From the sequence record MT446411.1: a stretch of 64,000 nt of DNA; one strand, written 5' to 3'. Below, in pieces: positions 2,726-64,000 of the stretch. Made by a program: the position numbers and the translations under genes. The notes beneath the pieces were generated by a model. That model ran no database searches, had not been told where the DNA came from, and saw only the letters and a program-made list of their open reading frames with translations. Numbering within the stretch: the first letter of the stretch is position 1; each line of letters begins with the position of its first letter. This DNA is from Escherichia virus TH40.

Positions 2726-3008
2726 CTTCCAATTTTACCTTCATTAATTTAGCGTATTCGACTGCAGCAGCCCGGCCATCAATTTGACATGTGATTTCAT
2801 TTACACATTGACTCTTATTGTTCCATTCAGTTTTAATAAAAGCCCAAAATTGTTCGGACTGCTCGACGCTGGGTTCTTTGAATTGCGAATAGATTTGCAT
2901 CGCACTATCTGCATATTGTGTAAATTTACCATCTGTAGCAGAGGACAGATTTGGGCCTAAACAGCCCATTAGTAATAGACTTAGAGAAAGTCCTCGAATA
3001 AGGTCCAT
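2712..3008 (-). CDS. putative lipoprotein
   Basis: ATG at 3008 preceded by AAGGAG; N-terminus MDLIRGLSLSLLLMGC has signal peptide plus lipobox (L-M-G-C). Confidence 0.5.
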   Translation of the reverse strand: MDLIRGLSLSLLLMGCLGPNLSSATDGKFTQYADSAMQIYSQFKEPSVEQSEQFWAFIKTEWNNKSQCVNEITCQIDGRAAAVEYAKLMKVKLEDEIR

Positions 3009-3082: not shown

Positions 3083-3358
3083 TTATAATCTTTTAAACTT
3101 GAAACAATATATTGCAAATAAATCAGAAAAATGTCTATCAACCCATATTCTTTGCACTGGACTAGTAACAGTCAGCATATAATGTGCTTTTTGTAAATTT
3201 ATTCCATTTTTATTCGGGCATTCTTTATTAACAGAATGGTACGTGCTTGCTACTATTTCAATTTCCCTTTCATATCTCTCGCTATCTGTTTGTGTGGGGA
3301 TAAATGCAATTCCAGCAATAACAAAAATAGAGATATACGTCCAAATCTTATATATCAT
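3083..3358 (-). CDS. hypothetical protein with N-terminal transmembrane helix
   Basis: 91-aa ORF; IWTYISIFVIAGIAFIPT hydrophobic stretch. Confidence 0.45.
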   Translation of the reverse strand: MIYKIWTYISIFVIAGIAFIPTQTDSERYEREIEIVASTYHSVNKECPNKNGINLQKAHYMLTVTSPVQRIWVDRHFSDLFAIYCFKFKRL

Positions 3359-60629: not shown

Positions 60630-61295
60630 TTATTTTAAAGTGACAAAAGATGAGTTACGAGTTTCTCGTACTAGAACAGACCCATTACGATTGATGTAAT
60701 AAATCAAACTGAATAGGGTTTGATGCGCGGTGGGATGTGGGAAAGCAGTTGGACGTTCTTTCCAATCCGGAGTCTCAGAAATCCACTGATAAATCCACCA
60801 TGGAACAGTACAGAATCCAGGGTTCTTGCCAATAAGCATAAGATTTGGACTAAAGTTTTTTGGTAGAGCAAATACAGGTTTTTCAGATTCGATAACCTTA
60901 GCAACAGCTGCTTCGAACTTTTCTTCGATAAAAGGAACATCTTCTTCGACCAAAACAACTGGTTCTTTGATTTCAACAACTTCAACCTTTGCTTCGGTTG
61001 GAGCATCAAATAAGAGTTTAGCTTCTTCTTTAGCTGACTCATCGCCATCAAATTTAGCACCTGACAATTCATCGTCAGCATCAATAAGGTCGGTGATGCT
61101 CAGGCCTTCATTATCATCAGGCATAGGCATGTCAGCAAATGCTTTAAGTCCTGCTTCCAGGTCAGCCAACATATTATCAAAGGTTTTTGTTTTCTTAACA
61201 TCAACGCCAAGTGATGCTGCATATTCGGCTAATTTTTCTTTGGCTTCTTTTTTCTCGAGGACACGAATTTCCTCAATGTAGTTCTTGTCAATCAT
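60630..61295 (-). CDS. inh: acidic protein in inh position (inhibitor of prohead protease-like)
   Basis: 221 aa, position between hoc and uvsW as T4 inh. Confidence 0.65.
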   Translation of the reverse strand: MIDKNYIEEIRVLEKKEAKEKLAEYAASLGVDVKKTKTFDNMLADLEAGLKAFADMPMPDDNEGLSITDLIDADDELSGAKFDGDESAKEEAKLLFDAPTEAKVEVVEIKEPVVLVEEDVPFIEEKFEAAVAKVIESEKPVFALPKNFSPNLMLIGKNPGFCTVPWWIYQWISETPDWKERPTAFPHPTAHQTLFSLIYYINRNGSVLVRETRNSSFVTLK

Positions 61296-61313
61296 GATGA
61301 ACCTCGGTTAGTG

Positions 61314-61321
61314 TATAAATA
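61314..61321 (+). promoter_or_regulatory. T4-type late promoter TATAAATA
   Basis: exact motif 29 nt upstream of uvsW ATG. Confidence 0.6.
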
Positions 61322-61349
61322 TAGATATATTTATTACCTTGGAATCATC

Positions 61350-62849
61350 ATGGATATTAAAATCAACTTTCTAAATTTTAGTCACGTGCATGTTGAATGT
61401 GAAGATGGAATCTTCTACGAACTCCGTGATTACTTCAGCTTCGAAGCTGAAAACTATCGCTTCAATCCAAAATTCAAGCAGGGAGTTTGGGACGGACGAA
61501 TCCGCCTCCTGGATTACAATCGTAAATTACCATACGGTTTGGTTAATCAAATTAAAAAGTTCGCTGACCAGTTTGGCTATTCATTCTGGATTGACCCACA
61601 AATCACCGAGAAAGAAGAAATCTCTCGCGAAGAATTCGACAAATGGGTCGAGTCAAAAGAAATCTATTCAGGCAATACTAAGATAACGCCCCATTGGTAT
61701 CAATCTGACGCCGTATATGATGGTCTGGTCAACAGAAGAAAGATTCTGAACTTACCTACGTCTGCAGGTAAAAGTCTCATCCAGGCGCTTCTGGCGCGAT
61801 ATTATCTCGAGAACTATGAAGGCAAGGTACTTATCCTTGTTCCTACAACCGCGCTTGTTGACCAGATGATTAATGACTTTGTTGATTATCGTCTGTTCCC
61901 TCGTGAAGCTTGTCTGGGTATTCGTTCTGGTACCAAACGCGATTCTGATGCGATGATTTATGTATCGACTTATCAGACGGCTGTAAAACAACCTAAAGAA
62001 TGGTTTGAACAGTTTGGTCAGTTTATGAATGACGAATGTCATATGGCTACAGGTAAATCAATTTCGACGGTTATCGAAGGCCTTACGAATTGTATGTTTA
62101 AATTTGGTTTGTCCGGTTCACTCCGTGACGGCAAAGCCAACCTTATGCAATATATGGGTCTGTTTGGTGATATCTTTAAACCAGTATCAACATCTAAATT
62201 GATGGAAGATGGTCAGGTCACTGACCTTAAAATAAATAGTATTTTCCTTCGTTACCCTGATGAATTTACCGTTAAAATGAAAGGTAAAACTTATCAGGAT
62301 GAAATTAAGGTAATTACAAAAGCTACACGCCGAAATAAATGGGTAACAAATCTTGCTCTCAAGCTTGCTAAAAAAGATGAAAACGTCTTTTTGATGTTTA
62401 AGAATATCGAGCACGGTAAATCGATGTTTGAAATGCTTAAGGAAGCTGGTCATGAGAAAGTGTATTATGTTTCCGGGGAAGTTGATACCGAAACTCGTAA
62501 TGCATTAAAGGTCATGGCAGAGAATGGAAAGGGAATTATCGTTGTAGCTTCATATGGCGTATTCTCGACGGGTATTTCCGTTAAAAACCTCCATCATATT
62601 ATTTTCGCCCACCCGGTCAAGTCAAAGGTAATTGTACTCCAGACAATTGGTCGTGTGCTTCGAAAACATGAATCCAAATCACAAGCAAACGTTTTTGATA
62701 TCGTGGATGATATGGGGGTTAAACCTAAATCGGTAAATGCTAAAAAGAAATATGTTCATTTGAACTTTGCCCTAAAACATGGTCTTGAACGTATACAACG
62801 ATATGCTGATGAACGTTTTAACTATGTAATTAAACAGGTGGAAATTTGA
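61350..62849 (+). CDS. uvsW: UvsW ATP-dependent DNA/RNA helicase
   Basis: From ATG 61350: MDIKINFLNFSHVHVECEDGIFYELRDYF..., DExH helicase motifs (LPTSAGKS, MNDECH) match T4 UvsW. Confidence 0.92.
   Translation: MDIKINFLNFSHVHVECEDGIFYELRDYFSFEAENYRFNPKFKQGVWDGRIRLLDYNRKLPYGLVNQIKKFADQFGYSFWIDPQITEKEEISREEFDKWVESKEIYSGNTKITPHWYQSDAVYDGLVNRRKILNLPTSAGKSLIQALLARYYLENYEGKVLILVPTTALVDQMINDFVDYRLFPREACLGIRSGTKRDSDAMIYVSTYQTAVKQPKEWFEQFGQFMNDECHMATGKSISTVIEGLTNCMFKFGLSGSLRDGKANLMQYMGLFGDIFKPVSTSKLMEDGQVTDLKINSIFLRYPDEFTVKMKGKTYQDEIKVITKATRRNKWVTNLALKLAKKDENVFLMFKNIEHGKSMFEMLKEAGHEKVYYVSGEVDTETRNALKVMAENGKGIIVVASYGVFSTGISVKNLHHIIFAHPVKSKVIVLQTIGRVLRKHESKSQANVFDIVDDMGVKPKSVNAKKKYVHLNFALKHGLERIQRYADERFNYVIKQVEI
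62827..62845 (+). repeat. 19-bp direct repeat, copy 1 (3' end of uvsW)
   Basis: taattaaacaggtggaaat, identical to 63519..63537. Confidence 0.8.
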
Positions 62850-63541
62850 ATTATCAAAAAATATATGATGATTTAATTGGGAGTCGAAAGGCTTCCAAAC
62901 CGATTGGATATACAGAATCTCACCATATCATTCCAGAATGTATGGGTGGGCCTGATACACAAGAAAACAGAGTCAACCTTACTCCGGAAGAACATTTCAT
63001 TGCACATAAATTATTGGCCAAAATTCATCCCAATCATTACGGTCTTATAAAGGCCGTCATTGCTATGGGTATGAGCTCTCGGACACACCAACGACAATTT
63101 AATAAATCGTATGGATGGGAGCGTAGACAAATGTCAGTTCTTCAAACGGGTGAAGGTAATCCTTTTTATGGTAAGCACCATACTGAAGAACATAAAGAAT
63201 ATATGAGTCAATTATTGAAGGGTCGCAAAATAACTTGGGCTGATAAAATATCCGTGACAAAGAAAGCGAATCCGTATAAATACTCTCAAGCACAATGTCA
63301 AGCTATATCAGAAAGAAATAAAGGTGAAGGCAATTGGATGTATGGTAAATCACATACACCAGAAGCATCGAAGAAAATTTCAGATAAAGCGAAAGAACGT
63401 TATAAAGACCCGTCTAAAAATCCGGCAGCTAAAAAGGTTGTTATAGGTGGAGTTGAATATGGTTCAATGAAACAAGCTTCAGAAGCTACGGGGCTTTCTA
63501 AATATAAAATTAGAAATTTAATTAAACAGGTGGAAATATAA
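62846..63541 (+). mobile_element. freestanding HNH-family homing endonuclease gene with NUMOD-like repeats
   Basis: 231 aa; HNH core ESHHIIPECMGG...ENRVNLTPEEHFIAH, NUMOD-like GNPFYGKHHTEEHK and GNWMYGKSHTPEASKK, helix-turn-helix-like C-terminus; TTG start overlapping uvsW stop; inserted between uvsW and uvsW.1. Confidence 0.65.
63519..63537 (+). repeat. 19-bp direct repeat, copy 2 (3' end of HNH gene)
   Basis: taattaaacaggtggaaat; both uvsW and the HNH ORF end with residues ...IKQVEI. Confidence 0.8.
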
Positions 63542-63768
63542 TGAAATCCTTCGAAGAAATTATGTACGAAGCATCAATTGAAGGCTTTATGGCTAAGATT
63601 GGTTCCTGCCAGACCATAGACGGTCTGAAGGAGTTGGAAAGCTATTATAAAAAACGCAGTAAAGAAGCTGAACTAAAAGATTCCGATGATATCAGTGTTC
63701 GTGATGCTCTTGCCGGTAAACGCGCCGAGCTTGAGGATATGGACGATGATGAAGACGAAGATTTCTAA
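63541..63768 (+). CDS. uvsW.1: UvsW.1-like small acidic protein
   Basis: 75 aa beginning MKSFEE, ATG overlapping upstream stop (TAATG). Confidence 0.7.
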   Translation: MKSFEEIMYEASIEGFMAKIGSCQTIDGLKELESYYKKRSKEAELKDSDDISVRDALAGKRAELEDMDDDEDEDF

Positions 63769-63774
63769 ATAAAA

Positions 63775-63800
63775 AGGCCCCAACCAAAAGGAAGGGGCAA
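63775..63800 (-). terminator. intrinsic terminator for minus-strand transcript
   Basis: minus-strand gcccc-ttccttttggtt-ggggc followed by ctttttattta. Confidence 0.5.
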
Positions 63801-63825
63801 AACCAAAAATGGTTAACAACACTAG

Positions 63826-63993
63826 CTAAATTAAAAGTTGGGTCTCGTTCAGTTGCTCTTCTGTATTTTCCGTAACTGGCAAACTCTGAACATAATTATA
63901 ACAGGCGCCCGGATGCACCGGACCTTGGTCTGTATCCACAACCAATGCAGAATCGATTGGAGTTTTACAGACAACACAAATCTTATCTGACAT
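63826..63993 (-). CDS. hypothetical small Cys-containing protein (below ORF-track length cutoff)
   Basis: 55-aa ORF translated by hand: MSDKICVVCKTPIDSALVVDTDQGPVHPGACYNYVQSLPVTENTEEQLNETQLLI; followed by terminator. Confidence 0.35.
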   Translation of the reverse strand: MSDKICVVCKTPIDSALVVDTDQGPVHPGACYNYVQSLPVTENTEEQLNETQLLI

Positions 63994-64000
63994 GATTGTC

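Follow-up and report, generated by a model that had tools for sequence, protein, structure and literature searches.

How can a mobile gene settle between two overlapping genes of a phage without damage to either of them? This question is raised by the uvsW-uvsW.1 locus of Escherichia virus TH40, a Gaprivervirus of the SP18/VR7 group, as it stands in a stretch of 64,000 nucleotides (nt) of sequence record MT446411.1, which is called the window hereafter. Between the helicase gene uvsW and its small neighbour uvsW.1 lies an open reading frame (ORF) of 231 amino acids (aa) that is interlocked with both of them: its TTG start codon (62846-62848) overlaps the uvsW TGA (62847-62849), and its TAA (63539-63541) overlaps the uvsW.1 ATG (63541-63543). 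Two copies of the 19-mer TAATTAAACAGGTGGAAAT, and no more, are present in the window, both on the plus strand, one at the 3' end of uvsW and the other at that of the inserted ORF, and both proteins end in IKQVEI, as had been pointed out in an initial annotation of this DNA (Table 1). Shuffling the sequence 100 times gives an expectation of 0 for this 19-mer, even when two mismatches are permitted; if one mismatch is allowed, the repeat can be extended to 22 nt, from 62824 to 62845 in the first copy and from 63516 to 63537 in the second, the two lying 692 nt apart. To the initial annotation the repeat had looked like the precise scar of a recent homing event and the mark of the likely cleavage site. 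What is the inserted gene, where does its product cut, and what does the repeat really tell us? In the explanation that accounts best for the whole, and that we hold to be highly probable, the insert of 692 base pairs (bp) would be a free-standing homing endonuclease of the T-even 'Mob' type, with an N-terminal HNH domain and an I-TevI-like binding region.

An endonuclease gene between uvsW and uvsW.1

The proposal of an HNH-type homing endonuclease inserted between uvsW and uvsW.1 is borne out by several profile matches. In Pfam, NUMOD3 (PF07460) matches two stretches of the ORF with an E-value of 7e-19; PHROG 655, a homing endonuclease family, matches with 6e-57, and the C-terminal part of TIGR01453 with 9e-8. 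When 45 homologues were combined into a profile, this matched the HNH motif of McrA (6ghc) with an E-value of 5e-4 and the DNA-binding domain of I-TevI (1i3j) with 3e-3. It is to be noted that the HNH assignment was saved narrowly, by the match of this family profile to McrA, since the Pfam HNH model itself (PF01844) scores below its gathering threshold (13.8 versus 21.4 bits, E-value 0.067). That model covers the Mob-type motif poorly, and a precomputed PF01844 match is found in just one of 120 listed homologues. Residues E24, H27, N41, H50 and H54 are invariant across the family of the 45-homologue profile, and in an AlphaFold (AF2) model with a predicted local distance difference test score (pLDDT) of 87.8, residues 24-60 form a beta-beta-alpha unit composed of strands 24-27 and 42-45 and helix 47-60 (pLDDT about 96 in this region). 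The C-terminal module of the same model runs strand-strand-helix-helix (strands 198-200 and 203-205, helices 208-215 and 219-229), its last helix extends into the uvsW-derived tail, and the top Foldseek match of the module is the I-TevI DNA-binding domain 1i3j (probability 0.98). As for the relation to Mob enzymes, the N-terminal 115 aa are 45% identical (E-value 2e-26) to a protein of phage VR5 annotated as 'similar to T4 MobE', and it is by this MobE-like protein that the likeness is judged.

Is the gene really an insertion? Among 32 Gaprivervirus records with at least 90% identity, presence and absence are polymorphic at one precise site of close relatives, with identical junctions. The gene of the window, which is called type A here, stands at the junction in five of the 32 records, from four phages (SP18, UPEC01, DK-13 and pEC-M719-6WT.2), and two further records, vB_YenM_P8 (YenP8) and P479, have a different endonuclease of 261 aa, type B, at exactly the same site. 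The junction is empty in the remaining 25 records and reads ...GGAAATATAATG, with a single 19-mer, just as the initial annotation had expected of insert-free relatives. These relatives, with their one copy (...GTAATTAAACAGGTGGAAATATAATG...), are 692 bp shorter (match span of 2009 versus 2701 nt). Among the fetched loci, two copies of the 19-mer are seen solely with an endonuclease gene between them; the opposite case, two copies without such a gene, which would speak against an insertion, occurs at none of them. The closest named counterpart is SP18_gp197, which is this very gene: it has 96.5% aa identity, occupies the identical site, is accompanied by both 19-mers and bears the RefSeq label 'homing endonuclease'.

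The distribution of the gene extends far beyond Gaprivervirus. By tblastn, homologues of type A or type B were found immediately behind uvsW in eight named genera or more; besides Gaprivervirus these include Tequatrovirus, Dhakavirus, Karamvirus, Bragavirus, Hadassahvirus, Angelvirus and Schizotequatrovirus; they are also present in phages of Klebsiella, Citrobacter and Morganella that bear no genus label, and the same arrangement is seen on four metagenomic contigs from further lineages. In all the 17 loci examined the start of the endonuclease gene overlaps the uvsW stop, by 4 nt (ATGA, TTGA or GTGA) or, in one locus, by 1 nt (TAATG). The element is widespread, is not unique to the window, and has already been annotated as a homing endonuclease in relatives; in a T4-like phage, which belongs to a group known as rich in seg and mob endonuclease genes, it is an ordinary one. 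In the literature, no description was found of an endonuclease between uvsW and uvsW.1. What the comparison adds is an uncharacterised Mob-like lineage behind uvsW, with two DNA-binding types that replace each other.

The ratio of nonsynonymous to synonymous substitutions (dN/dS) between alleles of the gene is 0.06-0.10, and the protein is under purifying selection. Could it be, then, a domesticated protein, an HNH and DNA-binding partner of UvsW and UvsW.1 that serves the phage and is not a selfish element? The strength of this selection, the likely co-transcription and translational coupling with a recombination helicase, and the widely conserved position would all suit such a role. Nevertheless, the gene is patchy among near-identical phages, with no gene at all at this place in most of the Gaprivervirus records; it can be replaced by an endonuclease whose C-terminal domain is unrelated; and it is accompanied by one-sided divergent flanks, as described below, which are typical of homing. 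We therefore consider domestication very unlikely.

As a direct repeat flanks the insert exactly, one might also think of a target-site duplication, left behind when the element inserted in the manner of a transposon. No transposase domain appears in the Pfam and PHROGs results, no inverted pair (0 found) surrounds the insert as terminal inverted repeats would, and the ORF is that of an HNH endonuclease. To our knowledge, no enzyme of the HNH class makes a staggered cut of 19 bp. Moreover, the upstream copy is diverged or absent elsewhere, and in other genera the two copies differ in origin, one being borne by the cassette and the other native, which is impossible for a target-site duplication. 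This idea was rejected, and we find it hardly credible. A group I intron was considered as well, as the record of UPEC01 names the gene 'group I intron endonuclease'. No intron is present there, and no Rfam family was matched at an E-value of 1 or less in positions 61000-64000 of the window, hence no group I intron was detected and the label was ruled out. From these side paths we return to the homing endonuclease, whose features are collected in Table 1.

Table 1. Features of the uvsW-uvsW.1 region, in positions of the window.
Feature	Position	Strand	Evidence or remark
T4-type late-promoter core TATAAATA, 29 nt upstream of the uvsW ATG	61314..61321	+	sequence; function inferred
uvsW helicase gene, 499 aa, C-terminus ...NYVIKQVEI-TGA	61350..62849	+	Pfam UvsW_N 1e-39, ResIII, Helicase_C
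Endonuclease-linked divergent tract, last ~175 nt of uvsW	62675..62848	+	comparison with TH55, SP18 and VR7
Upstream 19-mer copy, codes for the new UvsW C-terminus	62827..62845	+	sequence search
Homing endonuclease ORF, free-standing, 231 aa, C-terminus ...RNLIKQVEI-TAA	62846..63541	+	
Stem-loop, 9 predicted pairs, GAAA loop, endonuclease codons ~11-18	62877..62898	+	predicted fold
HNH (beta-beta-alpha-metal) catalytic motif, residues 22-54, yTEsHHIIPecmGGpdtqeNrvnLTpEEHfiaH	62909..63007	+	profile versus 6ghc
Two NUMOD3 DNA-binding repeats, residues ~101-127 and 152-179	63146..63382	+	Pfam; profile match to 1i3j
Second TATAAATA, within the endonuclease gene, 266 nt before uvsW.1	63275..63282	+	
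C-terminal helix-turn-helix-like module, residues ~198-229	63437..63532	+	AF2 model, Foldseek
Downstream 19-mer copy, host-native uvsW tail, codes for the endonuclease C-terminus IKQVEI	63519..63537	+	
uvsW.1, 75 aa	63541..63768	+	Pfam UvsW-1 1e-24; without endonuclease-associated differences

The uvsW.1 gene deserves a short remark. Because uvsW and uvsW.1 remain split with or without the endonuclease, the idea that the split itself is a product of endonuclease insertion ('genes in pieces') is unsupported at the search sensitivity used: no fusion of UvsW.1 with the helicase was found among 69 UvsW.1 homologues, all of which stand alone with 43-96 aa (mostly 74-79 aa; the shortest look partial). 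As for uvsW itself, its ATG at 61350 agrees with the annotated starts in relatives.

One-sided divergence in uvsW and the probable position of the cut

Where would the enzyme cut? Typically, the target of a free-standing T-even endonuclease lies in a neighbouring gene, some distance from the endonuclease gene, and the DNA from the cut to that gene is co-converted (PMC2988022). When the window is compared with endonuclease-free TH55, there is one mismatch in uvsW nt 1-977 and 33 differences in the last 175 nt of the gene (about 19%), and then two mismatches in uvsW.1; counted from the uvsW stop, mismatches amount to 1.1% from -1100 to -301 and are dense from -175 to the stop. The divergent tract of the window matches that of the SP18 group, which are carriers, and that of endonuclease-free VR7. 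The same was seen when carriers were set against their nearest endonuclease-free relatives in seven comparisons from four genera and with both types: upstream divergence of 1-8% (1-3% in six of the seven) rises to 12-22% over the last 300 nt of uvsW, and uvsW.1 has 0-2 mismatches in five of the seven. In the comparison of EnC07 with L018 the right flank is mis-registered, and uvsW.1 there is not scorable. What the seven comparisons provide is a pattern that would fit co-conversion, a divergent tract linked to the endonuclease, and not a cross.

The left boundary of the tract is type-specific. For type A it lies 175 nt before the uvsW stop in the window versus TH55 (Gaprivervirus), 179 nt in ESCO10 versus L030 (Dhakavirus) and 184 nt in ACG-C40 versus a T4-like contig (Tequatrovirus); for type B it lies at -237 in YenP8 versus TH55 (Gaprivervirus), at -241 in Bp7 versus L023 (Dhakavirus) and at -244 in EnC07 versus L018 (Karamvirus). 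Because the tract lies on the uvsW side alone, and by analogy with the T-even endonucleases (PMC2988022), the cut may be placed inside uvsW, most likely about 170-185 nt before the stop in the case of the window (positions ~62640-62680), at or next to the DNA coding for helicase motif VI, and probably not at the repeat. The tract probably contains or adjoins the cleavage target, and its one-sided, type-specific extent would predict the cut position of each enzyme. Known enzymes show how such a picture might come about: Mob enzymes nick their targets, and I-TevI stays on one cleavage product, by which co-conversion is biased to the other side (PMC2988022).

Could the target be narrowed down further? 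A search for positions that are invariant in endonuclease-free phages and changed in carriers gave no patch that is consistent across all carriers. Two patches came up as candidates (window ~62730-62790): one consists of the SANA codons, about 100-118 nt before the stop, and the other concerns KHA or KHG, about 63-66 nt before it. The SANA codons are replaced in most carriers (by SKDS, SSMA, SKTS, SSTS or SVNA), and the G-versus-A codon of KH(G/A)LER tracks the endonuclease in Gaprivervirus and Dhakavirus, not in Karamvirus or the Klebsiella phages. Both may be regarded as candidate target or immunity positions, inconsistent across carriers as they are.

It had been supposed, on the other hand, that the repeat marks the cleavage site, that is, that cleavage takes place where uvsW meets uvsW.1 and that recent homing left the 19-bp duplication as a fresh scar. 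It is true that the edges of the insert coincide exactly with this junction, one copy being present in endonuclease-free relatives; that in five combinations of lineage and type the native tail of the recipient is kept from nearly an identical codon onward, as would be expected of a fixed break immediately 5' of it; and that intron-encoded endonucleases cleave near their own insertion site (PMC2988022). The difficulty is that carriers still hold the 19-mer and all the DNA downstream of it, so such a site would stay cleavable unless recognition reaches more than 20 bp upstream. In addition, double-strand-break repair makes no target duplications, and the divergent tracts, which are found on the uvsW side only, begin 168-244 nt upstream. 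On this evidence a cut at the junction is improbable, and the claim that the repeat marks the cut finds no support. The other half of the supposition, the freshness of the scar, depends on the history of the tail itself.

The duplicated tail and the history of the cassette

What, then, is the repeat? When the uvsW tails of endonuclease-free phages were compared, genus by genus, with the loci that carry an endonuclease, the native tail was found at the 3' end of the endonuclease gene: ATTAAACAGGTGGAAATATAA in Gaprivervirus with type A or B, ATGAAACAGGTGGATTTATGA in Dhakavirus with type A and AAAACAGTTAATTTATAA in Tequatrovirus with type A. In the window, too, the downstream copy is the same sequence as the single copy of the endonuclease-free Gapriverviruses. 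Types A and B have in common the N-terminal ~65 aa alone and, in Gaprivervirus, the last six residues IKQVEI; thus this tail is derived from the host and is not a part of the endonuclease. The upstream tail, which forms the new end of UvsW, is mostly diverged, being AAAGAGGT... (KEV(K/Q)(L/I)) in several genera and VVKHVEL in Gaprivervirus with type B. In Dhakavirus, Tequatrovirus and the type-B Gapriverviruses, accordingly, the downstream copy alone is host-native and the diverged upstream tail travels with the cassette. A perfect duplication of 19/19 nt is seen only in the lineage of the window; Bragavirus PM2 has 16 identical nt, and seven lineages have no duplication at all, the endonuclease there ending in a C-terminus of its own of the ...KLRKL type. 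The 'precise scar' of the initial annotation is hence not a general feature of the element. As a separate observation, in endonuclease-free Tequatroviruses (two T4-like contigs, 2960-3000) uvsW is separated from uvsW.1 by a spacer of 25 nt that contains a GGGC-UUCG-GCCC hairpin, as against the overlap in Gaprivervirus, and Tequatrovirus carriers retain this spacer after the endonuclease stop.

Does the perfect identity of the two copies mean that the insertion is recent, as had been suggested? Among the 15 Gapriverviruses compared, some of them about 10% diverged in the flanks, the 17-nt stretch ATTAAACAGGTGGAAAT does not vary at all, and its 14-nt core AAACAGGTGGAAAT is kept even in a phage just ~73% identical overall. 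This core is strongly conserved as the ribosome-binding site of the next gene: the downstream copy holds a Shine-Dalgarno AGGTGG (63528-63533) 7 nt before the uvsW.1 ATG, and the upstream copy a Shine-Dalgarno-like AGGTGG (62836-62841) 4 nt before the TTG of the endonuclease. Furthermore, both copies are intact in all six type-A Gaprivervirus sequences (the five records and the window), whose endonuclease genes are up to 6% apart in nt (dS 0.27). Since both copies have remained perfect despite such divergence of the gene between them, their identity reflects constraint and cannot date the insertion. The same facts count against a fresh scar of a junction cut, as does the state of most other lineages, in which the upstream copy is diverged or there is no duplication. 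A repeat of this kind cannot be read as a sign of recency.

The events may be pictured as follows. During mixed infection, the enzyme would nick or cut endonuclease-free uvsW alleles, and repair from the carrier genome would then copy the endonuclease gene together with the 3' end of uvsW. The one-sided tract in the plus/minus pairs shows a mobile unit that comprises ~170-245 bp of the uvsW 3' end and the endonuclease gene and ends exactly at the recipient's own tail. Translated in frame, that tail supplies the final six codons of the endonuclease, and with it uvsW.1 keeps both its ribosome-binding site and its stop/start overlap. As the element must have a uvsW tail at each end, a repeat arises: the left copy completes UvsW and supplies the ribosome-binding site of the endonuclease, and the right copy is the retained native tail, with native sequence in both places in the lineage of the window. 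As the initial annotation stated, the insertion preserves the UvsW C-terminus and the overlap with uvsW.1, and the duplication of the tail shows how an element may enter one of two overlapping genes, at its end, and damage neither.

Once cassettes of this kind are present, they seem to be exchanged and lost as well as gained. The window and YenP8 have no mismatch in uvsW.1 and in uvsW nt 586-1259, and they have different endonucleases and different proximal tracts; with an identical backbone, this means that cassettes were exchanged. Compared with the other four type-A alleles of Gaprivervirus, the window allele itself shows 40-43 differences in 696 nt, and 22 of the 41 differences from SP18 are clustered in 120 nt that code for the helix-turn-helix (HTH) module (endonuclease nt 546-666, window 63391-63511), so the allele looks like a mosaic from an unsampled donor. 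In passing, EAWsc9 is a mosaic of the two uvsW 3' haplotypes, the endonuclease-linked one and the other. Concerning loss, endonuclease-free VR7 has a patch in uvsW nt 1333-1479 that sets it apart from its sisters VR25 and VR26 (34 of 147 nt) and is the endonuclease-linked haplotype; the patch starts at -168 and ends at most 27 nt from the insertion site. It fits either a precise loss of the gene via the 19-bp repeats or a carrier-templated repair that annealed at the first repeat and skipped the gene. A perfect repeat might thus be a liability for the element, permitting its precise loss or bypass.

If loss is so simple, might the gene be ancestral and all the endonuclease-free genomes be precise deletions between the 19-bp repeats, so that the polymorphism reflects loss and not gain? 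A deletion between the repeats would indeed restore exactly the endonuclease-free junction, and VR7 bears the linked patch up to the insertion site where VR25 and VR26 do not. However, most endonuclease-free Gapriverviruses have a different uvsW 3' haplotype, about 20% diverged, and are therefore not simple deletion derivatives. The backbone of the window is near-identical to those of TH55 with an empty junction and of YenP8 with another endonuclease, which implies recent gain or exchange of the cassette, and repeats good enough for a precise deletion are missing in most lineages. General loss from an ancestral state has, in our view, a rather small chance to be right, and gain by homing is kept as the preferred account.

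Several points weigh against this account and are gathered here. The type-A pair UP19 versus L029 departs from the rest, with a boundary further left (-226) and 28 mismatches in uvsW.1, all of them from nt 66 on. The sharp boundaries lie beside conserved helicase-motif DNA and could mark places where crossovers between lineages are feasible, not cuts; such a restriction of crossovers to conserved motif DNA explains the sharpness equally well as cleavage does. No close relation is seen between the divergent tracts of one genus and another, nor between these tracts and any sampled phage (best identity 0.72-0.83), and no single donor lineage of the endonuclease-linked tract appears among the sampled phages.

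A bolder view may be formulated, which we put forward tentatively and would not back at even odds. The uvsW/uvsW.1 boundary might be a conserved landing pad of T4-like phages for bipartite HNH endonucleases, with swappable DNA-binding domains (A and B), fixed type-specific cuts ~175 and ~240 nt upstream, a composite cassette whose right edge is the recipient's tail, a 5' hairpin as a family-wide regulator, and precise excisability where the tail is perfectly duplicated. If this were true, the right-hand end of the break would be protected and unresected as with I-TevI, VR7 would be a natural example of precise excision, and the locus would offer a tractable natural system for the cycle of gain, exchange and loss of a homing endonuclease.

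Expression of the gene and the closest known systems

How might such a gene be expressed? The octamer TATAAATA has 21 matches in the window versus 5.3 expected, and the sole late-promoter core upstream of the endonuclease is the one before uvsW, which is likely the promoter for a uvsW-endonuclease-uvsW.1 transcript. The endonuclease would have no upstream promoter of its own and would be transcribed from this late promoter. Because its TTG overlaps the uvsW TGA and the Shine-Dalgarno-like sequence is so close to it, translation may take place at a low level by termination and reinitiation. The second TATAAATA, inside the endonuclease gene, is kept in all seven Gaprivervirus and Dhakavirus type-A genes and absent in other lineages; it is possible that it serves as an embedded late promoter for uvsW.1.

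RNA structure is also predicted at the beginning of the gene. The stem listed in Table 1 is kept in all 11 type-A genes compared, despite differing stem sequences and peptides (GAGAGGC/GCCUCUC, GAGCCC/GGGCUC), and its minimum free energy (MFE) is below that of synonymous recodings in each of the 11 (fraction of recodings at or below the observed MFE at most 0.033). Per-sequence folding was used for this purpose, as RNAalifold gave no consensus for the 5' region of the endonuclease genes, their loop lengths being different and the alignment slipping. Most type-B genes also have a 5' coding hairpin. In a further predicted fold, the TTG and the next 30 nt (62846-62878) can form a hairpin of 11 bp (UUGAAUUAUCA / UGAUGAUUUAA), by which the start codon could be sequestered; for the RNA of window positions 62800-62900 the folding energy is -22.7 kcal/mol (z -3.7).

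The TTG start itself is supported by homologues with ATG at that position, in which the N-terminus MNYQKIYDDLI is the same, and by the fact that an internal ATG would cut the HNH motif. This has practical consequences, since several public annotations that use the internal ATG delete part of the catalytic motif: in SP18 (2143-2742 of the fetched locus), UPEC01 and pEC-M719-6WT.2 the first 32 residues are dropped, including the HH of the HNH motif. DK-13 is annotated from the TTG. Two other labels at these loci are also misleading: uvsW is called 'tail completion protein' in ESCO10 (1008-2504 of the fetched locus), and a UvsY.-2 homologue is called 'major capsid protein' in vB_YenM_P8 (locus 3117-3284) and ESCO10.

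Which known system comes closest? Within Gaprivervirus it is SP18_gp197, which is annotated from the internal ATG and from which the window allele differs in the HTH region. Among characterised enzymes, T4 MobE has an N-terminal HNH domain of the same family, as judged through the 45%-identical stretch of 115 aa in the VR5 protein. Neither cassette has a promoter of its own, and in both the start codon overlaps the stop codon of the preceding gene (nrdA in the case of mobE); shared, too, are an early coding hairpin, a target, here a probable one, in a conserved neighbour gene, and a patchy distribution (PMC2988022). In T4 mobE and segF, terminator hairpins lie in the 5' coding regions at the same relative position as the hairpin of the window (PMC2988022); the hairpin at 62877-62898, in contrast, is followed by no U-run and is not an obvious terminator. 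The two genes differ also in location, mobE lying between nrdA and nrdB and the present gene between uvsW and uvsW.1, and the latter has a C-terminal DNA-binding region of two NUMOD3 repeats and an HTH module, a TTG start, and a 3' end fused in frame to a copy of the tail of a host gene.

With I-TevI, the present enzyme shares a related DNA-binding region, by the 1i3j matches of both the profile and Foldseek, and a bipartite layout of nuclease, linker and binding domain, and its one-sided co-conversion pattern resembles the bias that results from retention of I-TevI on one product (PMC2988022). I-TevI, however, is a GIY-YIG enzyme encoded in the td intron of T4, whereas the enzyme of the window is HNH and free-standing, and uvsW and uvsW.1 are separate ORFs even without it. 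T4 SegE is a free-standing endonuclease with uvsW as both neighbour and target (PMC2988022); it differs in being GIY-YIG and in lying on the other side of uvsW, in the gap between inh and uvsW. In the window, inh (60630-61295, minus strand) directly abuts uvsW, and segE is absent there. As for insertion within or at the end of an essential coding sequence with the host function kept, Aeh1 mobE in nrdA and T4 mobA in gene 39/60 are the nearest parallels (PMC2988022), with the difference that here the last six codons of uvsW alone are affected, and these are replaced by a duplicate.

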